Source: Berkelbacteria bacterium GW2011_GWE1_39_12
GTDB taxonomy: Bacteria > Patescibacteriota > UBA1384 > UBA12157
Direction of reading: 5' to 3'
NCBI GenBank assembly: GCA_001029735.1
Contig: CP011213.1
Span: 396,613-460,612, forward strand
Length of the DNA: 64,000 nt
A program made the translations under genes and the position numbers. How positions within the stretch are numbered: the first letter of the stretch is position 1; each line of letters starts with the position of its first letter. The notes below the pieces were generated by a model that did not search any database, was not told where the DNA came from, and was given only the letters and a program-made list of their open reading frames with translations. Shown piece by piece: positions 3,286 to 56,882 of the stretch.

Positions 3286-4083
3286 TTACAAAACCTTTTC
3301 CGCTCCAAGCCACATTAGTTCAAAAGCCATTTTTTGCATTTGAGCGATATTAACATCTTCAATCAACAAGCCAAACAAACCGCTTTTATAGGTTGTGATA
3401 ATAACCTTATTGCCATAAATATGAACATCGGCCGAAAAATTATAATCGTCTTTAGGAACTAATCTTATTTCTCTAAGTTCTGTTTTGGCTTTGTCATGCC
3501 ACTCTTCTGATTCACGAGAAACTAAGGCAATTATTCGGGTTTTAATTCCTGCATCGATTCTTCTTTTAATATAATCGTCAACCCATTCTTTATCTAAATA
3601 CTGATACAGATTGATGATTGAGGTGTAATTTAAAATGTCCTTGCCTTCACGAATCGTGTCTTCATACATCTGTTTGATTTCTTCCGGACCTTGATAGAAA
3701 TAAACCTTCGGTCGTTCTTCCTGTGAATTAAATAAACTCATAAGCTGCGGCAAAGCTTCGGCAAAACGCTTTTCGCGTTCTTTTATCAAAGTAACTACGG
3801 TTTTTGGACTCTCCGCTAAATAAAAATACTTTTTACCCACTTTTGCTCTTTTTATTAATCCCTTGTTTTCTAAAGCGGGAATAATTTCATAAACAGTAGA
3901 GCGCTTCACTTTTGAATGTTTGGCGATTTCTAAAATTGTAGTTTTACCTAACTCTAAAGCCGCCAAATAAACATCGGCTTCTTTGTCATCTAGACCAGCT
4001 TCAATTAATAAATTGTTTAATTTTGTGCTTTGCATAAGATTTCCTGTTTTGTCGATTTTGTCGACATTATTTATATCTATCAT
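3286..4083 (-). CDS. TrmB-like winged-helix transcriptional regulator (paralog 1 of 4)
   Basis: N-terminal wHTH motif LIEAGLDDKEADVYLAALELGKTTILEIAKHSKVKRSTVYEIIPALENKGL. It is paralogous to the ORFs at 5382, 12742 and 56154. Confidence 0.55.
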   Translation of the reverse strand: MIDINNVDKIDKTGNLMQSTKLNNLLIEAGLDDKEADVYLAALELGKTTILEIAKHSKVKRSTVYEIIPALENKGLIKRAKVGKKYFYLAESPKTVVTLIKEREKRFAEALPQLMSLFNSQEERPKVYFYQGPEEIKQMYEDTIREGKDILNYTSIINLYQYLDKEWVDDYIKRRIDAGIKTRIIALVSRESEEWHDKAKTELREIRLVPKDDYNFSADVHIYGNKVIITTYKSGLFGLLIEDVNIAQMQKMAFELMWLGAEKVL

Positions 4084-4126
4084 ATATTATTATCTTTAAT
4101 TTGTCAACATATTAGTGTCGAAATAC

Positions 4127-4160
4127 TTGACAAAATCTTAATTATGTGCTACAATATGTT
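4127..4160 (+). promoter_or_regulatory. sigma70-like promoter (TTGACA-17-TACAAT) for the 4291 gene
   Basis: ttgacaaaatcttaattatgtgctacaat, followed by a leader of about 130 nt that contains GAACCTTAA motifs. Confidence 0.45.
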
Positions 4161-4290
4161 GTTACAAGATAAGGAAAGCAGACATGAACCTTAACAACTT
4201 GGTTTCAACCTCCTGAAGAACTCCATAAGGAGAGCTTTAGGAGAGTTGAACCTTAAAACGCCATTTTAGCCAGAAAAAGGAGAAAAAACA

Positions 4291-4698
4291 ATGAAAATCA
4301 TGAATCGCTTCACTTCTGCAGTAAATGTAGACTACACTCTTTCAGTTAAGGAAATGGGTAATCGGGTTGGTCTTCTTCTGGACACCATATTCGACAAAGA
4401 CGTTGACCTTGATGAGGTCGTGGTATCTGGCGATGAAAATGTCGAGATTGTCCTGATTGAAAATGAGATCGGGATGTCAACCTTTGAAATTCTGGATGAC
4501 ATTGATTCCTTGGGATATAGGGCCGCAAACATCATGGAAATGATGGCCTATGTTCTTAAAACTGATGAAGAATTCGTCGTTGCCTTGGGCACAGAGATTA
4601 ACGGTAAGTTCGGTATTTACTGGGATGATCACGCAACATTGGGTAACGCCGGTTTAAGTGGTTGGAAACGCTTTTACTTCGCAGCTGTTAAGAAATAG
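4291..4698 (+). CDS. hypothetical small acidic protein (divergent from TrmB-like paralog 1)
   Basis: A 135-aa ORF with RBS aaaaaggagaaaaaacaATG, a strong upstream promoter and a downstream terminator. Confidence 0.5.
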   Translation: MKIMNRFTSAVNVDYTLSVKEMGNRVGLLLDTIFDKDVDLDEVVVSGDENVEIVLIENEIGMSTFEILDDIDSLGYRAANIMEMMAYVLKTDEEFVVALGTEINGKFGIYWDDHATLGNAGLSGWKRFYFAAVKK

Positions 4699-4708
4699 CA
4701 GTAACATT

Positions 4709-4740
4709 ACCCCGTTCGAAAGAACGGGGTTTTTATTTTG
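4709..4740 (+). terminator. rho-independent terminator
   Basis: Hairpin ccccgttcGAAAgaacgggg followed by TTTTTATTTTG. Confidence 0.65.
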
Positions 4741-4804
4741 CTTTCATTCAAAGGTCAAATAAAAAAGGACCTGCATTTAACAAGTCCCGAAAATGTCTCG
4801 CAAA

Positions 4805-5242
4805 TCACTTAAGGCTAGTCCTCAATCGATCAAGCCGCTGCTGTTCTTTGTCTCTGGCACTATTATAGTCTTGGCACATCGACTCATACTCTTTGGCTTT
4901 ACGTTCCCATTGGTAAAAAGTCTTTTTGCTGACCAGTACCAGAACACCATTGTAACGGGTGCCGTCGATGTGACAAACAGCATCACGACCCTCAAGAGCA
5001 GTCACCACTAGTTTGCCTTCGCTAACATTAACATCACTGTCATTCGGCGCTAAACCTTTGCCGGCTAGCACAGTCGGACAAATTGATGAGTAACTGTAAT
5101 CAGTGCAAACACTAGCGATGTTAAAGTTGTTACCTGGCCTGATTAAACAGCCTTCATCTACAAGCCCTACTGTGATGGTACAGAGAAGAACAATAAAGAT
5201 AAGTAATTCTGGGATAGTGATATTGTTCCAAAACTGTCTCAT
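4805..5242 (-). CDS. putative pilin-like protein (prepilin-type N-terminal hydrophobic segment)
   Basis: N-terminus MRQFWNNITIPELLIFIVLLCTITVG resembles a class III signal peptide (ITIPE with Glu at +5). There is no canonical Gly before the cleavage site. Confidence 0.3.
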   Translation of the reverse strand: MRQFWNNITIPELLIFIVLLCTITVGLVDEGCLIRPGNNFNIASVCTDYSYSSICPTVLAGKGLAPNDSDVNVSEGKLVVTALEGRDAVCHIDGTRYNGVLVLVSKKTFYQWERKAKEYESMCQDYNSARDKEQQRLDRLRTSLK

Positions 5243-5381
5243 TTCGGTTCCCCCTTCTCCGATTTCTCAGATTTACAGCAAAATAATATCAGAAATGTGC
5301 CCATCTGTCAATTCAAGTCATGGCTATCAATAAACGATTAAATTATTTCTCGTTTCTTTTGCATAAATAAATCATATATAT

Positions 5382-6152
5382 TTATTTTTCGGGAATTTCC
5401 CAAAGTAAATTAAATCGAGATCTTTCTTCATCAGCTAAGGTTGAGTTCTCTATAACAGTCGCAAACGGCTCTTTTTCGCTATGCGCTATATAGGCAATTG
5501 ATTTACCAAAAATATTAACTTCGGTTTTTTGTTTGAATTTTTCTATCGGTAAGAATCTAGTTTCTCTTAACTCGGCATCGTCTCGCTCAACTATTTTTCT
5601 ATTATCCAAAGTATCTGGCAAAATAGCCCTTACTTTTATTTTCTTTTTAACCCTAGCTTTCAGATAATCTGCAATGAATTCCTGATAGGAAGTTTCCACT
5701 GCTACATTACCGTAAATTAAGATTTCTTCTTCTTTGCCCAAATCTAAGGTTAAATTATAAACCTCTACTACACCGGCTTTTCCCTCGTAAAGACGAACGT
5801 CTGGCTTAAACGATGATTTACTAGCCAATCCTTCTAGTTGATTTAGGGTTTTTGCGAGTTTTTCCTGTCGTCGATTAAATGCGGATAATAACTGCTTAGG
5901 TGACGAAACTGTATAAATGTGCCTTTTTCCGTCAAAAGTACTACTGGCATACCCTTTAAACATCAAATTATTCATTAGCACATAACAGGTTGGGCGCTTA
6001 ATGGCGCTTTTTATGGCAATATCCCAGATAGAGCTCGGCCCTAATTCAAGAGCAGCCAAATAAACCTGAGCCTCATTTTCATGAAGACCAACCCCCTCTA
6101 AACTTGATAAAATGTCGTCATTTGTTGTTGTCATAATTATTAACACTATCAT
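5382..6152 (-). CDS. TrmB-like winged-helix transcriptional regulator (paralog 2)
   Basis: N-terminal motif LSSLEGVGLHENEAQVYLAALELGPSSIWDIAIKSAIKRPTCYVLMNNLMFKG. The true start is probably the MTTTNDD methionine. Confidence 0.55.
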   Translation of the reverse strand: MIVLIIMTTTNDDILSSLEGVGLHENEAQVYLAALELGPSSIWDIAIKSAIKRPTCYVLMNNLMFKGYASSTFDGKRHIYTVSSPKQLLSAFNRRQEKLAKTLNQLEGLASKSSFKPDVRLYEGKAGVVEVYNLTLDLGKEEEILIYGNVAVETSYQEFIADYLKARVKKKIKVRAILPDTLDNRKIVERDDAELRETRFLPIEKFKQKTEVNIFGKSIAYIAHSEKEPFATVIENSTLADEERSRFNLLWEIPEK

Positions 6153-6353
6153 ATCATATTGACGATATTATGTCAATTTATACCATATATTTTCAATATA
6201 TCGCTATGATAATTAGAGTCATAACTATTGACAATTAGGCCAATTAGTGGTACAATAGCATGTTAGAAAGATGAGGAATCTGCTAACAGGTTAGAATCTG
6301 AACCTTAATAATCTAAAGGTGGCACCGATCCTTAACGTGGTGCGCGGAAAATA

Positions 6354-6776
6354 ATGAGTTTAATAAGCGAGTACGATGAGTTAGTTACAGGCAAAACGAT
6401 TTCTGTTGAATTAGAAAATAGCTCGTCAAGTGACAAAAAAACTATCAATGTCCATGTCGGAATTTACCGACCAAGCTGGCCGTACGGTGGCTTTTACAAG
6501 CAATACAGAAGATACCCCCATTGCACCGAGTATATCCTTTTTCGAATCTTCATTAAGATCGAAGATAACGTCTGGAGTGATGATTTATTTCCGACTGGCG
6601 GGGTCAAGCATGATCCTAAAAAAACTGCTGCCGAAAATTGGGTATCACAAGAAGAAGTATTAAATCAAGCAAGAGACAGGATGAATGAGATTGCGCAAAG
6701 TATACGTCAGGAGATTTCTCGTCTGTATATTGACGGCACCCCTCTTGTTAAATGGTTGCAAGAGAGACCTGAGTGA
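6354..6776 (+). CDS. hypothetical protein (first of two tandem genes with a repeated leader element)
   Basis: A 140-aa ORF. It is preceded by promoter ttgacaattaggccaattagtggtacaat and the leader element AGGTGGCACCGATCCTTAACGTGGTGCG. Confidence 0.4.
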   Translation: MSLISEYDELVTGKTISVELENSSSSDKKTINVHVGIYRPSWPYGGFYKQYRRYPHCTEYILFRIFIKIEDNVWSDDLFPTGGVKHDPKKTAAENWVSQEEVLNQARDRMNEIAQSIRQEISRLYIDGTPLVKWLQERPE

Positions 6777-6917
6777 AAGTTATAAGTGTATCGAATTATC
6801 GGGTTAGCCAATTCGGCTAGCCCCTCTTTCCCTGATCGGATTGCCGATTAGAAACGAGAGAATTGCACACCAAAATTTATAGGTGGCACCGATCCTTAAC
6901 GTGGTGCGTGGAGAAAG

Positions 6918-7199
6918 TTGCGAATACAAGAAAAACCGATCGGCACGTTCAAAGTAAAAAGATGTGCGTATATCGAGTATGGTGTGGAAATCCCTGGAGT
7001 GATACCAGGAACTGTAACAAGCGATGGTAATTTAGGAGTCACATTAGAAGGCTTTACTTTTTCTGAAAAATCCTCTGGTCACGATGATCCAAACGGTTAT
7101 TGGGTAGTATCTGGGTTTTCACCTGACAATACGAGTTGTGTGGCAAGTACTTTCGGCGACGAAAGGAAAATCCATCTATATGGATTAGAAAAAATATAG
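6918..7199 (+). CDS. hypothetical protein (second tandem gene, TTG start, same leader element)
   Basis: A 93-aa ORF. The same 28-nt element is repeated at 6883-6910 immediately upstream. A terminator follows. Confidence 0.35.
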   Translation: MRIQEKPIGTFKVKRCAYIEYGVEIPGVIPGTVTSDGNLGVTLEGFTFSEKSSGHDDPNGYWVVSGFSPDNTSCVASTFGDERKIHLYGLEKI

Positions 7200-7212
7200 T
7201 AGTTATTTTGCT

Positions 7213-7248
7213 CGGCTGGTTCTTAATTGAACCAGCCATTTTTTTATT
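7213..7248 (+). terminator. rho-independent terminator
   Basis: Hairpin gctggttcttaattgaaccagc followed by CATTTTTTTATT. Confidence 0.6.
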
Positions 7249-7253
7249 AAAAC

Positions 7254-7284
7254 AAGATTGCTTCGCTTACGCTCGCAATGACAA
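7254..7284 (+). repeat. palindromic element family A, half copy (AGATTGCTTCGCTTACGCTCGCAATGAC)
   Basis: It shares the right arm of the family-A element. Intergenic. Confidence 0.6.
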
Positions 7285-7290
7285 ACTCCT

Positions 7291-7375
7291 TTATCCCCAG
7301 TTTATTGACGCGCTGTGGATAACTAATTAATATAAGGTTAGAGTGGTTGTGGACAACTTCCCTGTGGACAACTCT
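7291..7375. promoter_or_regulatory. DnaA-box cluster upstream of dnaA
   Basis: TTATCCCCA at 7291, TGTGGATAA at 7314, TTGTGGACAA at 7347 and CTGTGGACAA at 7362. Confidence 0.6.
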
Positions 7376-7419
7376 AGACCTTTAGTAGATAGTGAGGACA
7401 GAAGTAGTTAAGGAGTGGT

Positions 7420-8811
7420 ATGAAAACCTTAGACGAGAAAGAAACTTGGCAAGCGGCGCTCGGCGAACTGGAAGTGGTTTTTTCCAAGGCTAATTATTCA
7501 ACTTGGTTTAAAGACACTTTCGTTTTAGAAATCGCTGAAGATGAGATTACGGTCGGCGTACCAAATGCCTTCACTAAAGAATGGTTGGAAAATAAATACC
7601 ACCCGCAGATTTTTGAAGTCTTAAAAAAGATTCACCCCAATTTGAAAAACGCGACTTATGCCGTCGCCACTAATTCCGCCCGGCAAGCGCCTAAAATCGA
7701 TAGTGCAGACAATTCAGATATTAATCTAAAACCGACACAAAGTTATACTCCGACTCAAATCCCTGTTGCCGACAAACCTCAACCCGCTTTCAATCTTAAT
7801 GCGCATTACTCTTTTGATAATTATGTCGTCGGTAATTCAAACCGTTTAGCCATGGCCACCGCTCAAGCGGTTGCCGCCAACCCGGGCACTGCCTATAATC
7901 CCCTGTTTATTTATGGCGGCGTCGGTTTGGGTAAAACCCATTTGGTTCAAGCCATCGGTAATGAAATTATTGCTAAAAGTCCTAAGAAGAAAATTGTTTA
8001 TGTTTCCTGTGAGAAGTTTACCAATGATTTTATTGCTTCGATATCGGATAAAAAAACGAATGAATTTAAGAAGATGTATCGCGATGCCGACGTTTTAATG
8101 GTTGATGATATCCAATTTATGGCTGGAAAAGAAGGGACTCAGGAAGAATTCTTCCATACTTTCAATGCGCTTCACCAAGCCAATCGGCAAATTGTTATAA
8201 CCAGCGATCGCGTGCCGAAAGCCATCCCGCAGCTCACTGACCGCCTTTCCTCGCGTTTTGGCATGGGAATGGTCGCAGATATCCAACCGCCTAATTTAGA
8301 GATGCGTCAGGCGATTTTAAGAAACAAATGTGCAGAAAAGCAGTGCAGTTTAACCGACGACGTAATCGATTATATCGCTCAAAATATTGAATCCAATATC
8401 CGTGAACTCGAAGGCGCGATTACCAGAATTCTTACTTATTCTCAGATGAACGATGTTTTACCTTCACTCGCCATAACCACTAAGGCCTTAGAAGATATTA
8501 TTTCCAATAAAAATAAAATTATTTCTGTGGAAAAGATGTTGCAGATGACAGCTGATTTTTTCAATATCACCACTGTCGATCTTATTTCCGCTAAAAGAAA
8601 TAAAGAATTAGTGAGACCCCGCCAGATTGTAATGTATTTAATGCGCCATGAAATGAGCCTTTCTTATCCTAAAATTGGCCAACATCTAAACAAGAAAGAC
8701 CATACGACAGTTATACACGGCGTGGAAAAAATCGAAAAAGAAATTGCACGCGATGTGGAATTGCATAAAGAGCTGACGGCATTAAAAGAAAAAATGCACG
8801 CATTCAATTAA
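7420..8811 (+). CDS. dnaA: chromosomal replication initiator protein DnaA
   Basis: A 463-aa protein with Walker A GGVGLGKTHL, an AAA+ domain and C-terminal DNA-binding domain IV. RBS aaggag upstream. Confidence 0.95.
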   Translation: MKTLDEKETWQAALGELEVVFSKANYSTWFKDTFVLEIAEDEITVGVPNAFTKEWLENKYHPQIFEVLKKIHPNLKNATYAVATNSARQAPKIDSADNSDINLKPTQSYTPTQIPVADKPQPAFNLNAHYSFDNYVVGNSNRLAMATAQAVAANPGTAYNPLFIYGGVGLGKTHLVQAIGNEIIAKSPKKKIVYVSCEKFTNDFIASISDKKTNEFKKMYRDADVLMVDDIQFMAGKEGTQEEFFHTFNALHQANRQIVITSDRVPKAIPQLTDRLSSRFGMGMVADIQPPNLEMRQAILRNKCAEKQCSLTDDVIDYIAQNIESNIRELEGAITRILTYSQMNDVLPSLAITTKALEDIISNKNKIISVEKMLQMTADFFNITTVDLISAKRNKELVRPRQIVMYLMRHEMSLSYPKIGQHLNKKDHTTVIHGVEKIEKEIARDVELHKELTALKEKMHAFN

Positions 8812-9110
8812 AAACTTGAAGAAAATGGCGTAGTTGTGGATAACTTGTGGATAACTTTAGAAATTTGCGTCTCACGTGTGGATAAGTAAGTTTATAAAGT
8901 TCCAATTTTCATCAAAGACTGACTTATACACACGTTTTCCCCCTGTTTATACACAGTTTATACCCCACTTTTCCACATGCAAAACACCCGTTAATCCCCA
9001 CAATCCACAGCCCTTATTATTACTGCCTTTTTTCTTCTTTAAGAATTATTAATATATAAGTGTGGATAAGTCCGGATAAATATTGAGCAAATAACAAAGA
9101 AAGGAATTAG
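8812..9110. other. oriC candidate: DnaA-box cluster plus AT-rich unwinding element between dnaA and dnaN
   Basis: Perfect TGTGGATAA boxes at 8835, 8846, 8877 and 9061. TTATACACA at 8925 and 8947, plus degenerate boxes at 8958, 8970 and 9002. AT-rich stretch at 9020-9060. Confidence 0.75.
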
Positions 9111-10217
9111 ATGATAGTTTCATGTACACAAGAGAATTTAGCTAAAGGATTAGGTTTAGTTGGACGATCAGTCGGAACGAGAACGACTTTACCGGTTTTA
9201 AATAATATTTTAATCAAAACAGAAAAAGGCCGGCTTAAACTTTCAGCCACAGACTTGGAAATTGGGATTCATACGTGGGTTGGCGCCAAGGTTGATGAAG
9301 AAGGAGCTCTGACAATTCCGGCCAAACTTCTATTGGATTATATTAATACCAATAATGATAAGACAATCGATTTTTCTGCCAAAGATTTAACTTTGCATTT
9401 AAAGTCGGAGCATTATAAGGCAAACATTAAAGGTATAGATGCGGCTGAATTCCCTCTTATTCCTGAAGTTAAGAAAGCGGAAAGCTTGGAAATTCCGGTA
9501 GCCAGCTTTTTAAACGCCATCACAAAAACTCTAATTTCGACGGCTTTAGATGAAAGTCGCCCGGTACTTGCCGGAGTCTTCTTTAAGGCCAAAGGTAACA
9601 CACTGAAAATGGTTGCGACTGATTCTTATCGCCTTTCAGAGCAAACAGTTATTTTAAATAAGAAGATTGATAATGAAGTTGTATTTATTGTGCCACAAAA
9701 AACTTTGGCTGAAGTTGGTAGAATTCTATCCAATGCCGGTGAAGTAGTTATAGTTTCTGCCGGGGAAAACCAGGTTGAGTTTAAATTAGGCGAAACAATT
9801 CTAGTTTCACGTTTAATCGAAGGTACTTTCCCTGATTATGAACAAATTATTCCAAAAACAGTGAAGACAACTGTAGTTGTGAAAGCCTCATTATTTTCTA
9901 ATGCGATTAAAATGGCGTCATTATTTGCCAGAGAATCTGCCAACAACATCAAGTTAAAAATTGAAGCACCAGACAAAGTTTCCGTTTTAGCTGTCTCCCC
10001 TCATTTGGGTGATAATACTTCAGAAATAACCGGTCAAGTTAGTGGCGAAGGAATTGAAATAGCATTCAATGCTAAATTTTTAAGCGATGTTTTAGCGGTG
10101 ATAAATTCGGAAAACGTTAAGTTGGAACTATCGTCAAACTTAGCAGCTGGATTGATTAAGGCTGAAAAAGACAATAACTTTCTCTATGTGATCATGCCGT
10201 TAAGAGTTGATGAATAA
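9111..10217 (+). CDS. dnaN: DNA polymerase III beta sliding clamp
   Basis: A 368-aa three-domain clamp in the conserved position after dnaA. Confidence 0.9.
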   Translation: MIVSCTQENLAKGLGLVGRSVGTRTTLPVLNNILIKTEKGRLKLSATDLEIGIHTWVGAKVDEEGALTIPAKLLLDYINTNNDKTIDFSAKDLTLHLKSEHYKANIKGIDAAEFPLIPEVKKAESLEIPVASFLNAITKTLISTALDESRPVLAGVFFKAKGNTLKMVATDSYRLSEQTVILNKKIDNEVVFIVPQKTLAEVGRILSNAGEVVIVSAGENQVEFKLGETILVSRLIEGTFPDYEQIIPKTVKTTVVVKASLFSNAIKMASLFARESANNIKLKIEAPDKVSVLAVSPHLGDNTSEITGQVSGEGIEIAFNAKFLSDVLAVINSENVKLELSSNLAAGLIKAEKDNNFLYVIMPLRVDE

Positions 10218-10240
10218 GAAAAATACTAAAATAATTACTA

Positions 10241-10320
10241 GTCATTGCGAGTGCAACGAAGCAATCTTGGAAACAATAGATTACCGCGCCTTTCAGACAC
10301 TTATCCACGGACGCAATGAC
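10241..10320 (-). repeat. palindromic element family A, full copy, intergenic, reverse orientation
   Basis: GTCATTGCGAGtgcaacgaagcaatcttgg...cacttatccacggaCGCAATGAC with terminal inverted repeats. It contains a DnaA-box-like TTATCCACG. Confidence 0.65.
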
Positions 10321-10349
10321 ATTAGTAATATTTTTCGACTAATATTTTT

Positions 10350-11420: not shown

Positions 11421-11459
11421 ACAAAAAACCTGAAAGAATAAATCTCTCAGGTAATACGC

Positions 11460-11963: not shown

Positions 11964-12134
11964 AATCTATCTAGGATTATATATTATTTTGGCTGCCTGG
12001 TCAATCATGGTTGACTTCAATTATATTTTTATTTATAATCTGCTCAATTGGTGGCAATAGCGTCACCGACTCGGAAGGCTAATGGTGGCCCCGAGATTTT
12101 GCTCTAATAGCGGAGCAGAAGGATGGTTTAACAA

Positions 12135-12741: not shown

Positions 12742-13509
12742 TTAAATCTCTTCTTTCGATACCTTCCAAAGCTGTTCGAACCAGTTGCGCATGGATGTCG
12801 CGTATTCTTTGGAAGTGATAACAGTACCGAAGGACTCTTGGCTAGTGGTTATAATGGCGACATTGTCCTGATAGATCACAATATGAGCTGGACAGTCAAA
12901 ATCTTTGGGTGCAAATCTGTAAGTTCGGAAATCTTTTGGTTTAGGTTTGTTTATCTCGCCTTCTACTTCCCATTCCTTAACTCTAATTGAGCGAGATGGT
13001 ATTTTTTTATTTATGCGTTTTTCGATCCATTTTCTTAAATATTCTTCGCCGAAAACATCAGATATAGTGTTGGTATTGGCAACATACCAAATATTGTCTT
13101 TTTTTTCGTCAATTTCGAGCATTTCTTCGTAAATTAGCTTTATATCCTCACCTTTAAAGAAACGAACGTTGGGTTGGAAAGGCGAAATTTTATATTGCCG
13201 ATCGAGTTCTGGCAGATTCTTTTTTAATTCATCAATACTTTCATCGATATTCGCTTTTTCATTATTTAAAAGTGTAATTACTGTTCTAATGGGACGGGCT
13301 TGATAGCTTCGTCGAGTTTGATTGTCATTAATATTAATCAAGTTTTTCTCTCTTAAGCGTTCCAAAATATAAAAAACCGTCGTTCGCGGTAATTTAAGCT
13401 TACTGGCAACCGGCACGATGTGCGACTCGCCTATCTCTAAAAGGGCGAGATAGGCCTCGATTTCCTTATCTGAAAGGTTAAGTTGTTTTAGATAATTTCT
13501 GATGTCCAC
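12742..13509 (-). CDS. TrmB-like winged-helix transcriptional regulator (paralog 3)
   Basis: N-terminal motif LKQLNLSDKEIEAYLALLEIGESHIVPVASKLKLPRTTVFYILERLREKNLI. Confidence 0.55.
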   Translation of the reverse strand: MDIRNYLKQLNLSDKEIEAYLALLEIGESHIVPVASKLKLPRTTVFYILERLREKNLININDNQTRRSYQARPIRTVITLLNNEKANIDESIDELKKNLPELDRQYKISPFQPNVRFFKGEDIKLIYEEMLEIDEKKDNIWYVANTNTISDVFGEEYLRKWIEKRINKKIPSRSIRVKEWEVEGEINKPKPKDFRTYRFAPKDFDCPAHIVIYQDNVAIITTSQESFGTVITSKEYATSMRNWFEQLWKVSKEEI

Positions 13510-13598
13510 AATACTCCTAAACGTCTAAATGATTCGTCGACACTTATACTATACCACTATCTTATTAACAAGTAAATAGATATATAACGTCTAAAAGA

Positions 13599-13633
13599 CT
13601 TGACATTTGGGCTCGGTTGTGATACAATATCAT
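13599..13633 (+). promoter_or_regulatory. sigma70-like promoter (TTGACA-18-TACAAT) for the small-protein array
   Basis: cttgacatttgggctcggttgtgatacaat, with a leader of about 140 nt containing the CCTGTTTAACAGG palindrome. Confidence 0.45.
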
Positions 13634-13776
13634 GTAAAGAAAATTAGTTAAACCAGTTAATCAGGTTCACCAGACAGCCGGCACCTTAACAATTTGTTCA
13701 ACCTTCTGCCTACCTGTTTAACAGGTTGGTAGAAGAGTTGGATATAAAAAACACCAGTTAAAGGAGAATAAATCAG

Positions 13777-14139
13777 ATGATTCAGATAATCAAGATTAAC
13801 AAGGATTATGGCATCGTATGTTTTCCAGGTGAGACTTTCGAGGATTTCTATGCAATCAATACCCGTTTGAGTGCCGAGGGTTTTGGTCAAGATAAACGAA
13901 CATCCTATTCGGATTTCGGCGCCATACGGAAATATTACAGTTTTAATCGATTTAGATTCCGACAGCTTCTCGAGACTAGTAACCTGAAATGGGCGTGCGC
14001 ATCGAGTTTAGATGCAATCTGGCACTGGCATGGCGATGGACCCTTATGTATAAATCGCTACAGCCACGAAATCGGTAACTTCGAGCACGGGGTTTATGAT
14101 AGCTTCGGTGATCATAATGGCTTTCTTGTCCGACTCTAG
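13777..14139 (+). CDS. small protein family member 1 (VVWFP...RLTAEGFG...GFLVRL family)
   Basis: A 120-aa ORF. It is paralogous to the two following ORFs, with a shared N-terminal motif and the C-terminus GFLVRL. Confidence 0.5.
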   Translation: MIQIIKINKDYGIVCFPGETFEDFYAINTRLSAEGFGQDKRTSYSDFGAIRKYYSFNRFRFRQLLETSNLKWACASSLDAIWHWHGDGPLCINRYSHEIGNFEHGVYDSFGDHNGFLVRL

Positions 14140-14258
14140 ATCTTTATGATCTTTCGCCCGCCGCTTTTATGGCGTCGGGCGCTTCCTTCTGGATATCTAT
14201 CTAGGTATTCAGAAGAGTTGAAAAAACATTTCACTTTCAGAAAAGGAGAAAAATTCAG

Positions 14259-14618
14259 ATGATGAACGCTGTTGAAATGCAAATTGGTGAAAAGAAATAT
14301 GCGGTCGTTTGGTTCCCCGATGAGAAGATCGAGAACTTCTTGGCTGCCGATGTACGTCTTACCGCAGAAGGTTTCGATCCCGAACAGCGGGTCGGAGAAG
14401 ACGAAGTGGATGACGATATCCTTGAATCAGAGTCGTTTTGGGAACATAGCAGCGAGATTCCAGACGTTGTTTCAGCCAGCAAAACTGAAGAATTCTGTGG
14501 TTTTGAATTCGTGCACGGAGTAGCGCTTCATTGCTTCCCATATTTGGAATCATTTAGGACTTTCAGTCCGTCCGAAATTTACGATAAGGCGGAAATTTGT
14601 TACATTGTCCGGTTCTAG
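14259..14618 (+). CDS. small protein family member 2
   Basis: A 119-aa ORF containing YAVVWFPDEKIENF..RLTAEGFD. It is preceded by the conserved leader CGGGCGCTTCCTTCTGGATATCTATCTAGGTATTCAGAAGAGTTGAAAAAA. Confidence 0.5.
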   Translation: MMNAVEMQIGEKKYAVVWFPDEKIENFLAADVRLTAEGFDPEQRVGEDEVDDDILESESFWEHSSEIPDVVSASKTEEFCGFEFVHGVALHCFPYLESFRTFSPSEIYDKAEICYIVRF

Positions 14619-14726
14619 ACCTTATGGTCTCTCGCCCGTTCCTTCGTGGCACGGGCGCTTCCTTCTGAATATCTATCTAGGTATTTAGAAGAGTTGAAAA
14701 AATACATCGTATAGGAGAGTGTTCAG

Positions 14727-15071
14727 ATGGAGATGATAAAGCTTAACGATCAGTACGCGGTAGTCTGGTTCCCTAGAGAGTCATTCTACACACTCAAGTG
14801 TGTTGTAGTACGCCTGACTGCTGAAGGCCTTGGGCTAGAACAACTTACAGCTGTACCAGATTTGAATATCCTTAGGTCGTATTCTGACGACATTTGGCAG
14901 AAGTACCAGAAAGGCGAAGCTCCGGCTTCAATTTTCGCCACTACTATGCAAGGTAAAAAACGCCCCTATTGCACACCCTTTGTAAATGTTCACCCACAAC
15001 GTCGCAGGGTAAATACAAACTGGCTGACGATGCGCTTCAATGATTGCTGCGGCTTTCTTGTCCGGCTTTAA
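14727..15071 (+). CDS. small protein family member 3
   Basis: A 114-aa ORF containing YAVVWFPRESF..RLTAEGLG...GFLVRL. The same leader is repeated at 14650-14700. Confidence 0.5.
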   Translation: MEMIKLNDQYAVVWFPRESFYTLKCVVVRLTAEGLGLEQLTAVPDLNILRSYSDDIWQKYQKGEAPASIFATTMQGKKRPYCTPFVNVHPQRRRVNTNWLTMRFNDCCGFLVRL

Positions 15072-15087
15072 GTCGGCACAAACTTTT

Positions 15088-15117
15088 CCCCAGGTTAAAA
15101 CCTGGGGATTTTTTTAT
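15088..15117 (+). terminator. rho-independent terminator
   Basis: Hairpin ccccaggttAAAacctgggg followed by ATTTTTTT. Confidence 0.65.
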
Positions 15118-16321: not shown

Positions 16322-16378
16322 AAAGTCGAAAGTTCATAAAGTCGAAAGTCGAAAGTCGAAAGTCGAAAGTCGAAAGTC
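16322..16378. repeat. tandem heptamer repeat (GTCGAAA)x5 with flanking AAAGTC motifs
   Basis: aaagtcgaaagttcataaagtcgaaagtcgaaagtcgaaagtcgaaagtcgaaagtc. Confidence 0.8.
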
Positions 16379-25728: not shown

Positions 25729-28006
<2,278 letters not shown>

Positions 28007-52303: not shown

Positions 52304-53695
52304 TTGAAAATCGAAAAAATCGCACTAGTAGAGCCAGTTGGCGTAGACTGGTTCAATATTTACGCCCTGACCCGGATGCCGAGAGGTATTCCGCTCTTGG
52401 CGGCAATCTTGCGGCAAACTGGCTATCAGGTCGATTGTTATGTTGGATCGATCAAGAAGATCAAACTGAAAGATTTGATGCAATATGATGTCATCGGGTT
52501 TAGTGCGATCAGTTGCACAATTTACCCCACTCATGACATGATCCGTAAACTTATCGACATGGGATTTGTCGGCAAGATCATTGTTGGCGGACCACATGCT
52601 ACTGTTTTACCTGCGGAATCAATAATCACAGGAGCCGATGTAGTTGTCCGGAACGAAGGTGACAAAGCCTTACTAGAAGTGATCGCTGCTTTCGAATCAG
52701 GATCTGATCTTGGTAAAATCGCAGGTATTCACTGGTGGGACGGTGAAACGATTCGATCTACACCGAATCGGCCGTTTCTGACCGAGCAAGAATTGTCTGA
52801 ACTACCATTTCCAGCGTTGGACAGTATTGTCGGCCTGGAACGCATGAATCTTGTACCAATCACATTCAGTCGCGGCTGTCCTTATCAATGTGAATTTTGT
52901 GGCGTAGCCGGCATGTATGGCTCAAGATATCGTTGTACAACCGTCGAATGGCGTGTGGCTCAAGTCCGAAATCTCAAAGAGAATTACCCGGAGATATGGG
53001 CAACGACAGCCATTTTCTTTACCGATGATAATCTTTTCGGTACTCCTAGGAGCCGAGAAGTTACCATCGAATTCCTCAACCGGCTGGTTGCAGAGGATTT
53101 GGTCCCTCCAATGGGCTTTGTCTGTCAGATAAGAGTAGCTGATGCAACTCCTGAAATTGCGGCTCTTTTCAAAAAGGCAAATTGTTGTTTAGTTTGTATG
53201 GGCATCGAATCAGCGGACGATAAAGCCCTGAAGCTTCTCAACAAAGAACAGACGGCTGAAGATATTAGAGTCGGTCTCGCCAATCTTCACGCCGAGGGTT
53301 TGAATACCTTGGCGATGACGATCGCTGGAACGGATGAAGATACATTTTGGTCTTTCTGGCGTAGTATTCGGCAGCTGACTAAATGGGGAATTACTTATCT
53401 CCAAGTTCTGAATCTAGTCCCCTTGGTTGGCACGCCGATGACCAAACGTTTCATGGCTGAAGGCCGGAAGTGTTGTGAGAACTATGATCGTCACAATGGT
53501 ATGCACGTGACAATCAAGCCTAAGAAGATGAGCCGATTTGGCGTTTGGGCCTCGCTCTATCTTGTCTGCTTCGGCTGGTTCTATGGACGATTGTTACTGA
53601 AGCCGAGCTTCAAATACCGCAAGTTGATATGGGTTGGTGCTCTTCAGGAATTGAAGCGTCCATGGGAGATTATCAGAAATAGATTCAGGCGATAG
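52304..53695 (+). CDS. B12-binding domain radical SAM protein
   Basis: An N-terminal cobalamin-binding-like domain and radical SAM CxxxCxxC (CPYQCEFC). 463 aa. Confidence 0.7.
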   Translation: MKIEKIALVEPVGVDWFNIYALTRMPRGIPLLAAILRQTGYQVDCYVGSIKKIKLKDLMQYDVIGFSAISCTIYPTHDMIRKLIDMGFVGKIIVGGPHATVLPAESIITGADVVVRNEGDKALLEVIAAFESGSDLGKIAGIHWWDGETIRSTPNRPFLTEQELSELPFPALDSIVGLERMNLVPITFSRGCPYQCEFCGVAGMYGSRYRCTTVEWRVAQVRNLKENYPEIWATTAIFFTDDNLFGTPRSREVTIEFLNRLVAEDLVPPMGFVCQIRVADATPEIAALFKKANCCLVCMGIESADDKALKLLNKEQTAEDIRVGLANLHAEGLNTLAMTIAGTDEDTFWSFWRSIRQLTKWGITYLQVLNLVPLVGTPMTKRFMAEGRKCCENYDRHNGMHVTIKPKKMSRFGVWASLYLVCFGWFYGRLLLKPSFKYRKLIWVGALQELKRPWEIIRNRFRR

Positions 53696-53716
53696 CGTCG
53701 AGAGGGGGTTTACGAA

Positions 53717-54031: not shown

Positions 54032-54132
54032 CTATCAAGGTTGGTAAAACCCATATGGGTGATAAGCCAGCCTTTTTTATTTGACAAATATTTTTTTATG
54101 AACTTATAGTTGACTAGGAATGAATATCAGAA

Positions 54133-54964: not shown

Positions 54965-55043
54965 CGAGATAGCCTGCGAAAGCAGGCTTTTTTAAACATA
55001 TAAAAACCCCAGGAATTTATCCCTGGGGTTTTATTAGAAAGAG

Positions 55044-55472
55044 TTAGCCGAGTACTCTGACTAGGCTAACAAGAAGTCGAACAGATGGATCGTACTCCAT
55101 TTGTTCGGGAGGGCAATCAGAATTGAAAAACTTCGACTCCAGATATGCAATGACCGCCTCCTTCTCGTCTGGAGAAATCTGCTTGCGCATCAAGAAGTAG
55201 TCGTTGATGATGCGTCGTTCGAGTTTTGACGTCCAGAAGATCGAGAAGATACTGAGGATTCCACCTGTCCCAACGATTGTGAATGCAACCGCTGCACTTA
55301 CTAGATGAGCGATTGTTAAGGATTGGGCGACTACAAGTGAAACCATAAGCGTGCCGACGGTTATATTTGGGAACAGGCTTGATACTGTCTGCTGGTGTTT
55401 CCGGTAAACCTTCTCGGCATCTGGTGAAATCGTCTTAATATCTTTTAGTAGAGCTTCCTGATTAACTTTCAT
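55044..55472 (-). CDS. hypothetical small membrane protein (tandem paralog-like pair, gene 2)
   Basis: A 142-aa protein with two TM helices. It is preceded by a conserved leader shared with the 55563 gene. Confidence 0.35.
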   Translation of the reverse strand: MKVNQEALLKDIKTISPDAEKVYRKHQQTVSSLFPNITVGTLMVSLVVAQSLTIAHLVSAAVAFTIVGTGGILSIFSIFWTSKLERRIINDYFLMRKQISPDEKEAVIAYLESKFFNSDCPPEQMEYDPSVRLLVSLVRVLG

Positions 55473-55562
55473 TTCTGTCTCCTTAAGAATTTATTTTCAC
55501 CGCTTGAAACTCTTTAAAAGGAGTCTCGAGGGTAAGCCCCAGGAGCAAATCCTGGGGCGAAA
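55473..55562 (-). promoter_or_regulatory. conserved structured leader (hairpin + AAGCGGTGAAA motif), copy 2
   Basis: Minus strand: CCCCAGGATTTGCTCCTGGGGCTTACCCTCGAGACTCCTTTTAAAGAGTTTCAAGCGGTGAAAATAAATTCTTAAGGAGAC. Confidence 0.4.
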
Positions 55563-55853
55563 TTAAGGTATGCAGATAATATCGTCAGGAATTAACCTGT
55601 CGAGAAAGCTTGCATATCCTTTTGCCAGCCAGTCACCTTCTTTGCCAAGTTTCAGGCTAGCAAGATGAAAGATAGTTGTTCCGATCAATATAATCGAAGC
55701 AATGGCCCATACTGCCGAATGATGTTCTAGAAACATAGCGACGGTGAAAACCGTCACAAAGCTTCCCACCCATTCAGGGCAGATCAGCCATACAATCGGG
55801 AAATACAGTACTACCTTTACTATTCTTTTCAATGTTATTAAGAAGGATCTCAT
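55563..55853 (-). CDS. hypothetical small membrane protein (gene 1 of pair)
   Basis: A 96-aa protein with 2-3 TM helices. Confidence 0.35.
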   Translation of the reverse strand: MRSFLITLKRIVKVVLYFPIVWLICPEWVGSFVTVFTVAMFLEHHSAVWAIASIILIGTTIFHLASLKLGKEGDWLAKGYASFLDRLIPDDIICIP

Positions 55854-55990
55854 CTGTTATCTCCACAGTGTATTTCACCGCTTCAAATCCTTTGAAAGGG
55901 ATCTGAAGGGTGAACCCCTGAACCTGTTATCAGGTAAGGGGCTAACCTGGCATCCACCAGGTTCGGACAACTTATTAAGGTTCAAACCTG
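55854..55990 (-). promoter_or_regulatory. conserved structured leader, copy 1, containing GAACCTTAATAAG and CTGATAACAGGTTCAGG motifs
   Basis: Minus strand: ...GGTTTGAACCTTAATAAGTTGTCCGAACCTGGTGGATGCCAGGTTAGCCCCTTACCTGATAACAGGTTCAGGGGTTCACCCTTCAGATCCCTTTCAAAGGATTTGAAGCGGTGAAATACAC... Confidence 0.4.
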
Positions 55991-56153
55991 TAAATCCTTA
56001 TCTTGACTACCTATTGTAACACAATATTAGCCATTTGTCAAGTATTAGTGACGATAATTGATCATTATATAATTCTTTATATTTATCATATTGACAAGGT
56101 AAATTAGGCATTGTATACTGTATATAGTCGTAGATTAGTGACGAAAGGACTGT

Positions 56154-56882
56154 ATGGACATCAATTCAACCTTAAAAGACCTCGGTTTAGACGAAAAAGA
56201 GATCAATATTTACCTAGCTACCTTGGAACTGGGCGAATCCACGGTTTTGCCGATTGCCAAAAAAGCCGGTTTAAAACGAACCTATTGTTACGATATCTTA
56301 TCCTCTCTTCAGCAAAAGGGCCTGGTTTACTATCAGGAGAAAAACAATCGCCGCCGCTATATTGCCGAAGATCCGAAAAAATTAGAAGAAATTGCTAAAA
56401 ATCGTTTAAGAAATTTAGCCAGTATTTTACCTGAATTAAAATCTCTCTATAATCGCTCTGCTTCCAAGCCAAAAGTCCGTTTTTACGAAGGTAAAAGTGG
56501 TTTAATTGAGGTCTATGAAATGTTTGCTAAGGCTAAATCATTTGATGCGATCGCCTCGCCAAACCATATAACCGAAAATTTAGGCGATTATTTTAAGAGC
56601 TTTGCCGACAGAGTAATTATGAAGAAACTGAAAATCAGAGAACTCGTAACTGGCGATGGCCAAGATATCGAGTACGTCAAAAAATACAAAAAACCTTTTC
56701 AAGAAGCGAGAATATTACCACAAGGAGTCGTTCTCGACACAGATATTGTGATTTTTGAAGATAATTTAGCTTTAATTTCTTATGAAAAAGACGTGCATGC
56801 CGTTTTATTGCAAAACTCCTCAATCGTAAAAACCCATAAGGTTTTATTTGAACTTTTATGGAGTAATGCAAGAAAGCTCTAA
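56154..56882 (+). CDS. TrmB-like winged-helix transcriptional regulator (paralog 4)
   Basis: N-terminal motif LKDLGLDEKEINIYLATLELGESTVLPIAKKAGLKRTYCYDILSSLQQKGLV, with promoter TTGACAAGG...TATACT upstream. Confidence 0.55.
   Translation: MDINSTLKDLGLDEKEINIYLATLELGESTVLPIAKKAGLKRTYCYDILSSLQQKGLVYYQEKNNRRRYIAEDPKKLEEIAKNRLRNLASILPELKSLYNRSASKPKVRFYEGKSGLIEVYEMFAKAKSFDAIASPNHITENLGDYFKSFADRVIMKKLKIRELVTGDGQDIEYVKKYKKPFQEARILPQGVVLDTDIVIFEDNLALISYEKDVHAVLLQNSSIVKTHKVLFELLWSNARKL

Follow-up and report, generated by a model that had tools for sequence, protein, structure and literature searches.

Four TrmB-like regulators in a Berkelbacteria genome and their divergent gene units: probable self-contained repressor cassettes with an RNA leader

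The DNA described here is a 64-kb window (the whole stretch that was analysed, with positions counted from its first letter; G+C 40.8%) from the Berkelbacteria bacterium GW2011_GWE1_39_12. It contains four genes for TrmB-like regulators, named R1 to R4, each of which stands back to back with a unit of one to three small genes, called cargo below, that is preceded by a strong promoter and a long leader. To our knowledge, gene regulation in bacteria of the Candidate Phyla Radiation (CPR), which are mostly uncultured, is largely unstudied; a literature search on TrmB in Patescibacteria/CPR, on NusB in CPR and on transcriptional regulators of Berkelbacteria returned nothing relevant. The relatives used for comparison are Patescibacteria loci (labels L004-L129; 129 fetched in total), and 13 distinct orthologous loci, from the R1, R3 and R4 clades with no R2 orthologue locus among them, were looked up individually. 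The four regulator genes, which the original prediction had described as TrmB-like paralogues at 3286, 5382, 12742 and 56154, are the following.

3286..4035, minus strand: R1, TrmBL2-like regulator (Pfam TrmB); probable start M17 (ATG at 4035, 249 amino acids, aa); longest open reading frame (ORF) from 4083
5382..6134, minus strand: R2, TrmBL2-like regulator (Pfam TrmB, paralogue alignment); probable start M7; longest ORF from 6152
12742..13509, minus strand: R3, TrmBL2-like regulator with a GTG start (Pfam TrmB; orthologues at 85-56% identity)
56154..56882, plus strand: R4, TrmBL2-like regulator (Pfam TrmB; AlphaFold2; Foldseek)

Pfam, alignment and fold agree on this assignment. All four proteins match Pfam TrmB (PF01978; E 5e-15 to 7e-11, 42-55 bits against a gathering cut-off of 25.6) and are 30-32% identical in pairs over their full length, as paralogues; a profile built from R1-R4 found no fifth copy in the window. 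The AlphaFold2 model of R4, made from an alignment with 31 orthologues, has a pLDDT of 92, and its closest Foldseek matches are TrmBL2 structures (5bpd/5box, E 3.5e-14, full length, about 260 columns), with TrmB 3qph matched at E 1.9e-10. The C-terminal domain of the model matches the PLD-fold nucleases Nuc (1byr) and NucT (6ehi); no HxK motif was seen around the conserved His215 of the R4 clade, so that this PLD-like domain appears to lack the catalytic HKD. By sequence and by predicted fold, the regulators are TrmB-like at the family level. A sugar-sensing TrmB identity is not supported, as the NCBIfam TrmB and TrmBL1 models give 26-38 bits against cut-offs of 600-650, with only residues 1-155 aligned, the NCBIfam TrmBL2 score is likewise far under its cut-off, and the regulators are 242-265 aa long, against about 340 aa for TrmB, and have no sugar-binding subdomain.

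The starts of R1 and R2 deserve a comment. R1 is 100% identical to a public protein of 249 aa (annotated as transcriptional regulator TrmB, Berkelbacteria GW2011_GWE1_39_12), and R4 too has a match of 100% identity in Candidatus Berkelbacteria. The public R1 protein starts at M17, which is probably the true start rather than that of the longest ORF at 4083. For R2, the longest-ORF start at 6152 is probably too far upstream, and M7 at 6134 is preferred. With these starts, the O1 boxes discussed below fall in the 5' untranslated region or at the start codon.

The TrmB-like family has 527 tblastn-confirmed matches in a species-representative genome collection. The 80 best of the 527 are almost all labelled Patescibacteria/CPR or unclassified bacterium, with a few under other bin labels, and identity to R1 among these 80 does not exceed 41%. 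Closer orthologues of the clades come from metagenomes, with identities of 68-40% for R4, 85-44% for R3 and 82-32% for R1. IMG/VR holds no relatives of the regulators, and an origin from a phage or other mobile element was rejected on this ground. The predicted recognition helix is nearly constant inside each clade and different between clades, reading RSTVYE(I/L) in the R1 clade, RPTCYVL in R2, RTYCYDIL in the R4 clade, and RTTV(F/Y)YIL in those R3 orthologues that retain the operator-like box described below.

Each of the four intergenic regions carries a divergent pair of predicted sigma-70 type promoters. They were scored as consensus matches out of 12, at 17-bp spacing, over the scanned stretches of the window.

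4127-4155, plus strand: cargo promoter 1, TTGACA-17-TGcTACAAT, 11/12 with TG extension
6228-6256, plus strand: cargo promoter 2, TTGACA-17-TACAAT with TG, 11/12
13600-13628, plus strand: cargo promoter 3, TTGACA-17-TACAAT with TG, 11/12
56041-56013, minus strand: cargo promoter 4, TTGACA-17-TACAAT with TG, 11/12
4107-4102 (TTGACA) and 4084-4079 (TATGAT), minus strand: own promoter of R1, from the promoter scan
6176-6171 (TTGACA) and 6153-6148 (TATGAT), minus strand: own promoter of R2, from the promoter scan
13576-13571 (TTTACT) and 13553-13548 (TATAGT), minus strand: own promoter of R3, from the promoter scan
56091-56119, plus strand: own promoter of R4, TTGACA-17-TATACT, from the promoter scan

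The four cargo promoters rank among the highest-scoring sites of the scanned stretches, which bears out the earlier claim that a strong TTGACA/TAYAAT promoter faces each regulator; the regulators' own predicted promoters score 9-11/12. If transcription starts about 7 nucleotides (nt) past the -10, the leaders of arrays 1-4 are about 129, 91, 142 and 153 nt long. The small genes thus lie behind long leaders of about 91-153 nt, close to the 90-140 nt first given.

A repeat search found one related box pair in each intergenic region (4050/4116, 6130/6218, 13520/13586 and 56044/56134). The box next to the regulator is called O1 and the one next to the cargo unit O2.

4050..4066, no strand assigned: O1 of R1, perfect palindrome TGTCGA-TTTTG-TCGACA (TGTCGATTTTGTCGACA), just 3' of the R1 own promoter
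4116..4132, no strand assigned: O2 of R1, TGTCGA-AATAC-TTGACA (TGTCGAAATACTTGACA); its right half is the -35 of cargo promoter 1
6130..6145, no strand assigned: O1 of R2, GTCATAATTATTAACA, over the transcription start of the R2 own promoter
6218..6233, no strand assigned: O2 of R2, GTCATAACTATTGACA, 88% identical to O1, with the right half serving as -35 of cargo promoter 2
13520..13539, no strand assigned: O1 of R3, AACGTCTAAATGATTCGTCGAC (aligned box AACGTCTAAATGA), just 3' of the R3 own promoter; conserved in L117-L120
13586..13605, no strand assigned: O2 of R3, AACGTCTAAAAGAC-TTGACA (aligned box AACGTCTAAAAGA), with the right half serving as -35 of cargo promoter 3
56128..56144, no strand assigned: O1 of R4, CGTCACTAATCTACGAC as read on the minus strand (repeat TCGTCACTAAT at 56144-56134), just 3' of the R4 own promoter
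56036..56054, no strand assigned: O2 of R4, TCGTCACTAATAC-TTGACA as read on the minus strand, a GTCA-N8-TGAC palindrome (repeat TCGTCACTAAT at 56054-56044, minus strand), with the right half serving as -35 of cargo promoter 4

In all four regions O2 abuts or overlaps the cargo -35, and O1 lies directly 3' of the regulator's own predicted -10. The boxes are retained in orthologues, clade by clade. R1 orthologues keep TG(T/C)CGA...TCG(A/G)CA palindromes, and TGTCGCTTTCACCGACA and TGCCGATTTTATCGGCA occur at the O1 position in L122 and L126. R3 orthologues of 85-67% identity keep AACGTCTAAA at O1, and their O2 reads AACGTCTAAA in L117 and L119 and the variant AACGTCGAT in L118 and L120; in the R3 orthologue of 56% identity, the box and the recognition helix have both diverged. 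Among R4-type loci, CGTCA-N7-ACGAC (O1) adjoins the regulator start in 25 of 32, and over 20 such loci the information content is 1.5-2.0 bits in the CGTCA core but, for the most part, about 0.1-0.5 bits in the 16 nt farther upstream, where three positions reach up to 1.0. From clade to clade, then, boxes and recognition helix co-vary. More distant Patescibacteria show a similar layout: in most of 23 scanned loci the divergent TTGACA is preceded, at a constant distance, by a box that has a conserved TG, and several of these loci (e.g., L004, L032 and L046) show a matching box near the regulator start, the L004 boxes being TGTCTA-N6-TAGACA and TGTCTT-N6-TTGACA. Possibly, then, distant family members follow a general rule of the form [variable half-site]-N5-8-TTGACA.

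These patterns make it quite likely that the boxes are private candidate operators, by which each regulator would control both promoters of its intergenic region. It is also probable that the cargo promoters would be repressed rather than activated, because they match the consensus at 11/12 positions with a TG extension and because one half-site of the box coincides with the -35.

Downstream of the cargo promoters, the leaders share two short motifs. The original prediction had placed GAACCTTAAYAA in all four leaders, which slightly overstated the case: it is exact in three (4186, 6300 and 55983-55972), but leader 3 has GCACCTTAACAA at 13681, with one mismatch. The second motif, TAACAGGTT, is present as claimed in leaders 2, 3 and 4 (6284, 13719 and 55929-55921). 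Both are enriched over chance in the window, GAACCTTAAYAA at up to one mismatch having 5 matches against 0.88 expected (none of 100 shuffles reaches 5) and TAACAGGTT having 6 against 0.98 expected, the remaining three lying outside the leaders. The leader features, with the main motif called M1 and the long hairpin that follows it P2, are these.

4185..4197, plus strand: M1 of leader 1, TGAACCTTAACAA; second copy, GAACCTTAAAAC, at 4248-4259
6299..6311, plus strand: M1 of leader 2, TGAACCTTAATAA; TAACAGGTT at 6284-6292 lies in the preceding small hairpin
13680..13692, plus strand: M1 of leader 3, GGCACCTTAACAA, followed by TTTG
55971..55984, minus strand: M1 of leader 4, TGAACCTTAATAA
4204..4250, plus strand: hairpin P2, type A, UUUCAAC-CUCCUG...UAGGAG-A-GUUGAA; fold z = -5.0; covariance-model match of 81.8 bits
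13697..13742, plus strand: hairpin P2, type A, with TAACAGGTT as the 3' side of the apical stem; compensatory changes relative to L117

The shared consensus of M1 is (U/C)G(A/C)ACCUUAAYAA. The motif always lies on the sense strand, is non-palindromic and, among promoter-proximal copies, stands 5-92 nt past the -10, with L126 having it further downstream. Its placement varies, as it occurs twice in leader 1, in a hairpin loop before each cistron of array 2 (GATCCTTAAC), and immediately before the Shine-Dalgarno (SD) sequence in L114, L121 and L126. With a relaxed pattern, derived from the window motif itself, 12 of 39 matches fall in promoter-proximal leaders against 0.95 expected. The core ACCTTAA occurs 12 times in the window, five times inside the four leaders; three leader-located copies outside the four main leaders were noted, one upstream of rnpA, one in the second-copy region of leader 1 and one upstream of 55044. 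Among 80 distant Patescibacteria loci, the exact leader motifs were found in L018 only.

The leaders fold with z = -3.2 to -5.8. In the predicted folds, a small 5'-terminal hairpin has the conserved AAGAURAGG as its 5' strand and the motif as its 3' flank, and most copies of the motif are unpaired between this hairpin and the long one. The 5' hairpins of more distant orthologues covary (CGAUGAG/CUCAUCG, CAAUGAGA/UCUCAUUG and ACGAUAGA/UCUAUCGU). TAACAGGTT is the 3' half of the apical stem ACCUG-loop-CAGGU. The covariation check on the leaders, which had been suggested with the original prediction, was run on six homologous leaders (R1-, R3- and R4-type), some of them closely related, and P2 covaries: 90% of positions are paired, there are seven compensatory pairs, and a covariation score of 0.347 compares with 0.183 for shuffles, none of 500 reaching it, and with at most 0.126 for slid controls. 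A covariance model of M1 plus the hairpin found extra, weak copies in Berkelbacteria-type TrmB loci only; 57 distant loci had none. In the window, Rfam at gathering thresholds gave one tRNA only and no leader family; at E up to 5, the four units gave only terminator-like stems at the array ends.

It is therefore very likely that the leader motif acts as RNA and not as an operator for the TrmB-like proteins. Because it is strand-specific, non-palindromic, found at variable distance from the promoter and shared in spite of differing regulators, it looks like an RNA element that would be read by a common host factor. The proposal that leader motifs tie the four units into one regulon is not supported, since the private box pairs lie outside the leader, the boxes co-vary with the recognition helix, and the motif is RNA-like.

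A candidate for the common factor is the NusB/NusE complex, and it is possible, though short of probable, that the leader motif is a BoxA-type site. The gammaproteobacterial BoxA consensus is GYTCTTTAANA (PMC5725501). The critical contacts are G2, C5 and Y6, and position 6 is C in Aquifex BoxA instead of the U of E. coli (PMC3177189). BoxA drifts between phyla, and it acts in mRNA and in the leaders of CRISPR arrays (PMC5725501, PMC7665894). The Aquifex-type C at position 6 gives a CCUU core, as in the Berkelbacteria leader motif, and the G2, C5 and Y6 contacts are retained in most copies. Thirteen of 17 positions are identical between the E. coli rrsH leader (TGCTCTTTAACAATTTA) and leader 3 (GGCACCTTAACAATTTG). 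Among the TrmB-divergent leaders of distant Patescibacteria, that of L078 has a perfect GTTCTTTAAAA, and L040 and L075 have GTTCCTTAAAA. The BoxA argument rests on an independently conserved motif that resembles BoxA, because single-site scores are no better than chance; the chance that a conserved motif would show such a resemblance is put, as a rough estimate, at 0.001-0.02. An antitermination rationale is given by the untranslated stretches (leaders of 90-150 nt, spacers of about 90-140 nt), because long untranslated leaders and spacers are the kind of RNA that Rho attacks. An enrichment of 6-mers in distant leaders (TTAAAA and AACAAA) was set aside, as it is confounded by the AT-rich composition of non-coding DNA.

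The cargo genes were located as first claimed, at 4291, at 6354 and 6918, at 13777, 14259 and 14727, and at 55563 and 55044, and an intrinsic-terminator-like hairpin closes each of the four arrays.

4291..4698, plus strand: cargo 1, a gene of 135 aa without Pfam or NCBIfam match; terminator at 4709-4730
6354..7199, plus strand: cargo 2, genes of 140 aa (6354-6776) and 93 aa (6918-7199); terminator at 7214-7237
13777..15071, plus strand: cargo 3, three paralogous genes (120, 119 and 114 aa; starts 13777, 14259 and 14727); terminator at 15087-15108
55044..55853, minus strand: cargo 4, genes of 96 aa (55563-55853) and 142 aa (55044-55472); terminator at 55032-55003

The small proteins of the window have no convincing match in Pfam or NCBIfam, and a profile search with the array-3 family gave 12 matches among 1.84 billion (1.84e9) cluster representatives. 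The two small proteins of cargo 4 are strongly hydrophobic and, by inspection, are predicted to be membrane proteins. In relatives the pairing of regulator and divergent unit is conserved, as a unit adjoins the regulator in all 13 distinct orthologous loci of the R1, R3 and R4 clades; its content is not. With the leader motifs enriched and the pairing kept, neither of the two outcomes named beforehand as refuting the original prediction occurred. Downstream of R4-type regulators, 69 of 92 ORFs are singletons (BLASTP, 1e-4), and a Pfam batch scan of the 46 downstream ORFs of at least 80 aa, in which matches were listed for the batch and not assigned to individual ORFs, returned domains of larger enzymes (methyltransferases, a carbamoyltransferase and a 5'-3' exonuclease). 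Near R3 orthologues, the divergent cargo is a B12-binding radical-SAM gene of 476-534 aa (L118-L120). The description of the units as small-protein arrays therefore holds for the window but is too narrow for the family. In R1 orthologues (L127-L129), a different, faintly radical-SAM-like gene of 474 aa lies directly downstream, on the regulator's own strand. A case of exchange is seen in the R4 unit compared with that of L081, a 68% orthologue: the two are near-identical from the -35 through the pre-cistron hairpin, apart from one extra hairpin in the window copy, and their similarity ends about 20 nt before the start codon. Promoter and leader thus appear from sequence as a conserved platform, and cargo as replaceable and mostly unrelated between orthologous loci.

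Some further observations concern the cargo. The first cargo genes of some R4 orthologues (L081 1755-2225; L086; L108 1847-2170) have N-termini that look by eye like a CheY receiver (MEKLRILVIDDK...); for the L081 protein Pfam is silent, and this cargo is unlike the hydrophobic cargo of the window. In the window itself, 52304-53695 is by eye a radical-SAM-like gene (CxxxCxxC in the translation), 2.4 kb from R4, and is followed by a 104-aa protein that looks by eye HTH/ArsR-like.

Within the arrays, a repeated element before internal cistrons, reported earlier, was confirmed in arrays 2, 3 and 4, with copies at 6310-6351/6874-6915 (90% identical), 14176-14226/14652-14702 (96%) and 55873-55918/55495-55540 (78%). 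There are three types of element, each with a hairpin 10-30 nt upstream of the SD sequence.

Type A: CUYCUG...CAGRAG-A-GUUGAA-A-rich, arrays 1 and 3
Type B: CACCCUUCAGAUCC...GGAUUUGAAGSGGUG-AAA, array 4 and L081
Type C: GCACC-GAUCCUUAACGU-GGUGC, array 2
6310..6351, plus strand: pre-cistron element of array 2, hairpin GCACC-GATCCTTAACGT-GGTGC with a CCTTAAC loop; second copy at 6874-6915, ahead of cistron 2
14176-14226 and 14652-14702, plus strand: hairpin elements of array 3, before cistrons 2 and 3
55873..55918, minus strand: type B hairpin of array 4, CACCCTTCAGATCC...GGATTTGAAGCGGTGAAA, ahead of cistron 1; second copy at 55495-55540, ahead of cistron 2

The type B hairpin at 55873-55918 folds with z = -5.8 and is conserved in L081 to about 20 nt before the start codon. 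Tandem duplication largely explains the repeats of array 3, which share 96% identity and separate tandem paralogues. No relationship is detectable between the genes that flank the element in arrays 2 and 4, so that there the element itself may be conserved or may move with its cistron. The preceding cistron ends in a G+C-rich hairpin in arrays 3 and 4. This layout suggests either segmental processing or stabilisation of the mRNA, or cassette boundaries.

Taken together, the arrangement is best explained, with moderate probability, by four self-contained autoregulated repressor cassettes with an RNA leader. Each would be built around a TrmBL2-like regulator made of a winged helix-turn-helix, a coiled coil and a PLD-like domain. 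By binding O1, at about +1 to +20 of its own promoter, the regulator would repress itself. O2 would be an imperfect palindrome composed of a clade-specific left half, a spacer of 5-8 nt and T(T/C)GACA, and a homodimeric regulator on it would exclude sigma region 4 and so silence the cargo, until a signal, presumably sensed by the PLD-like domain, released the regulator. The four paralogues would act as four insulated switches and not as one regulon, because they differ in recognition helix and in operator. Once transcription had begun, the leader motif would load NusB/NusE (S10), so that the long untranslated RNA would resist premature termination of the Rho type, and the hairpins before each cistron would set mRNA stability, processing or translation.

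Several points weigh against this explanation, among them the small and partly redundant sample behind the covariation of P2 and the window origin of the relaxed motif pattern. The O2 centre, at about -41, is the classical position of a class II activator, and for R3 the spacing of O1 is unlike that of O2, which leaves its second half-site uncertain. The window copies agree with the gammaproteobacterial BoxA consensus at 8 of 11 positions (9 of 11 with the Aquifex-type C), positions 2-3 being different, and the G2 contact is missing in the copies of L086, L088 and L083. Single sites with 3-4 mismatches from E. coli BoxA number 7 against 4.6 and 37 against 26.7 expected in the window, which is chance level. 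The Rfam scan found no rRNA genes in the window, and the 5' end of a 16S gene, sought for the rRNA leader of the lineage, was found neither there nor in the 129 Patescibacteria loci; nor was nusB found in the 64-kb window or the fetched loci by phmmer with an E. coli NusB query. What the sequences show is the anatomy of genes, promoters and boxes, how it is conserved, the joint change of box and recognition helix, the covarying hairpins and the turnover of cargo; binding, the direction of regulation, the ligand and the BoxA function of the leader motif are things that we infer.

Other readings of the same DNA concern mainly what the regulators bind and do. If GAACCTTAAYAA and AACAGGTT were DNA operators shared by the four paralogues, the units would form one regulon or a cross-regulated network, a view that gains from the strong enrichment of motifs common to the four units and from the short inverted repeats that AGGTT/AACCT can form in leaders 2 and 4. 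It is nevertheless very improbable, given a motif that is non-palindromic, confined to the sense strand and scattered over 5-92 nt from the -10, recognition helices that differ between paralogues, a AACAGGTT that is the 3' side of covarying apical stems, and better candidates in the paralogue-specific palindromic boxes, which lie on both promoters and are conserved in orthologues. Activation by the regulators, in the class II manner from about -41 (contact with sigma region 4 and alpha), with autorepression at O1, would agree with the position of the O2 centre. TrmB-family proteins such as TrmBL1 and Halobacterium TrmB can activate as well as repress. Activation is still unlikely here, for the near-consensus cargo promoters (11/12 with TG) need no activator, and the right half of O2 is the -35 itself, so that regulator and sigma would compete for the same bases. 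A different kind of proposal treats the arrays as integron-like cassettes, with RYYYAAC...GTTRRRY-like hairpins (GTTCAAC...GTTGGAT in leader 3) as attC-like sites. The hairpin bases do resemble the attC R''/R' cores, bulged base included, the cargo is promoterless, without family matches and unrelated between orthologous loci, and the homology breakpoint falls right after the hairpin. But no integrase or tyrosine recombinase lies beside the window units or in 13 related contexts, the element is found ahead of cistron 1 whereas a terminator takes its place behind the last cistron, the genes of array 3 are tandem paralogues, and types B and C have no attC-like cores. An integron-like array, extremely improbable on this evidence, was rejected for want of a recombinase and for the element being on the wrong side of the genes.

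For the leader, the main alternative to BoxA is a stability or translation element that works without Nus factors. In that case the 5' hairpin and the SD-like AAGAUAAGGA would block 5' decay, ACCUUAAC would be the 3' strand of the hairpin or an anti-SD in cis, and the hairpins before the cistrons would serve in processing or stabilisation. Gram-positive bacteria are known to have STAB-SD elements and 5' stabilisers; GAUAAGG and CCUUAAC can pair, the 5' hairpins of orthologues covary on the same GAUGAG strand, and the intercistronic regions have paired 3' and 5' hairpins. The 3' strand, however, is conserved beyond what pairing needs (an A-A mismatch is retained while the 5' partner varies), the conserved block runs into the unpaired AAYAA(UUU), and in L114, L121 and L126 the motif stands without a partner directly before the SD sequence, so that this reading is given a low, though real, probability. 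A ligand- or protein-sensing switch, either riboswitch-like or a translational operator for the cargo protein, would account for long, structured leaders with strong z-scores and covariation, yet it is quite improbable: permissive Rfam thresholds, too, gave no matching family, the leader folds as a simple hairpin that has neither a multi-stem junction nor conserved loops, no alternative terminator/antiterminator pairing was found, and the same leader fronts unrelated cargo, which fits neither a metabolite switch nor autoregulation by cargo. The motif might, finally, open a leader peptide (MNLNN...) that controls by attenuation, for AAGGA-N8-ATG-AAC-CTT-AAC opens an ORF of 10 codons in leader 1 and TTG-AAC-CTT one of 36 codons in leader 4. 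Only 4 of 12 instances, however, have an in-frame start by the motif, with none in leaders 2 and 3, L081, L086, L088 and L117, and the changes downstream of the motif keep hairpins, not codons. A leader peptide is thus largely refuted and hardly credible.

The cassettes can be compared with several known systems. Like TrmB, TrmBL1 and TrmBL2 of Thermococcales and haloarchaea, R1-R4 combine a TrmB winged helix-turn-helix, a coiled coil and a PLD-like domain, and the operators of that family are likewise short inverted repeats with an AT-rich spacer over core promoter elements. The TGM motif of the TrmB family is TATCAC-N5-GTGATA. Unlike archaeal TrmB, R1-R4 are bacterial, lack the sugar-binding subdomain and have no global sugar regulon; they would be insulated paralogues, each with one adjacent unit of varying cargo and a putative private operator fused to a sigma-70 -35. 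Unlike TrmBL2, which a PDB entry title describes as a sequence-non-specific chromatin protein, they are apparently sequence-specific, with private operators. TetR-tetA, MarR-type and ArsR-type modules resemble the cassettes in having a divergent target, operators over both promoters, and repression of regulator and target alike, but they belong to other protein families, whereas here the operator half-site is the consensus -35, the module is multiplied in a small genome (roughly 0.9 Mb or more, judged by a contig of 915 kb), and the targets are unrelated between most orthologous loci.

The RNA part has its own counterparts. Like BoxA in rrn leaders, lambda nut, the suhB 5' untranslated region and CRISPR-array leaders, the leader motif is a single-stranded sense motif of about 12 nt by a hairpin, with hairpin then motif as in the boxB hairpin then boxA of rrn leaders and a core of CYUUAANAA, and it precedes long RNA that is untranslated or poorly translated, as BoxA does before CRISPR arrays (PMC7665894). 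It differs at consensus positions 2-3 (GYT), which are GAA or GCA in Berkelbacteria copies, and in the placement of some copies, inside hairpin loops (array 2) or immediately 5' of the SD sequence. With 5' stabilisers of the STAB-SD and ompA/ermC types it shares a 5' hairpin and the SD-like AAGAUAAGGA a few nt from the predicted start, but the sequence of its unpaired 3' flank is conserved, and further copies of the motif stand at a distance from the 5' end. The arrays are like integron cassettes in their promoterless, variable small genes behind a strong promoter and in the imperfect RYYYAAC/GTTRRRY-like hairpins between genes; they differ in having no integrase, in an element that is 5' of every cistron including the first and missing after the last, and in one array being made of tandem paralogues.

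The design varies two known ones, the classical divergent repressor/operator module with autoregulation and promoter occlusion by the TrmB family, and involves no new principle. What appears to be new is the fusion of a half-operator with the consensus -35, which in CPR bacteria would hold for the whole family, the multiplication into insulated paralogous switches inside a small genome, and a conserved promoter-leader platform, possibly Nus-dependent, before replaceable genes without families. The predicted operators, paired with the recognition helices of four paralogues, amount to a small recognition code, and the cargo, mostly small family-less proteins that would be under tight private control, are candidates for conditional functions. 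If the BoxA assignment is right, Nus antitermination of protein-coding operons extends to CPR bacteria, with a handle on their Rho/Nus biology. A wider, decidedly unlikely extension is a Patescibacteria-wide plug-in platform, with a duplicating cassette, in which the TrmBL2-like repressor would read a palindrome that takes in the consensus -35 and each further paralogue would make another insulated switch, a Nus/BoxA leader, and the terminal hairpin as the point at which unrelated, family-less genes are swapped. In that event the swapped genes could be host-interaction, defence or stress genes of episymbionts, the hairpins before the cistrons would work as cassette boundaries, each PLD-like domain would respond to a signal of its own, and genomes that have been regarded as poor in regulators would have in the platform one of their chief means of gene regulation.

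Some observations were made on the neighbourhood. The gene neighbourhood of the replication origin holds three of the four cassettes: the R1 and R2 modules lie between rpmH-rnpA and dnaA (window 2718-11420) and R3 soon after recF, the genes rpmH-rnpA, dnaA, dnaN and recF being named from their translations by inspection. A small hairpin between rpmH and rnpA contains ACCTTAAAAC at 3055-3070 (minus strand), 31 nt upstream of rnpA. At 11976-12039, back-to-back near-consensus promoters (11/12 each) occur without a TrmB gene and drive a 167-aa gene (minus strand) and a 190-aa gene (plus strand); the leader of the latter ends in GGTTTAACAA directly before the ATG. In L107, from a distant relative, 3690-4923 (minus strand) holds the 3' end of a 16S gene, then a terminator and then a protein-coding gene, so that there is no 23S linkage; this piece of 16S, the sole one in the fetched loci and without its own leader, is about 1.3 kb from a TrmB orthologue.

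Repeats are also dispersed over these loci. A palindromic repeat (GTCATTGCGAG...GCGACGCGGCAATC), similar to repetitive extragenic palindromes or miniature inverted-repeat transposable elements (MITEs), is intergenic at 7253-7288, 27365-27442, 45479-45559, 45953-45973 and 48020-48049. A MITE-like repeat (TTGTCATCCTGAACTTGTTTCAGGATC) is inserted in the leader of L083/L087, even in the leader hairpin, and in intergenic regions of L094, L097, L103 and L119. A short palindromic repeat, CTCCGCCAGCTGGCGGATT, occurs four times in the window (25466, 26980, 34235 and 48829), and a tandem heptamer, (AAAGTCG)n, lies at 16338-16371, just past the 93-aa ORF that follows array 3.

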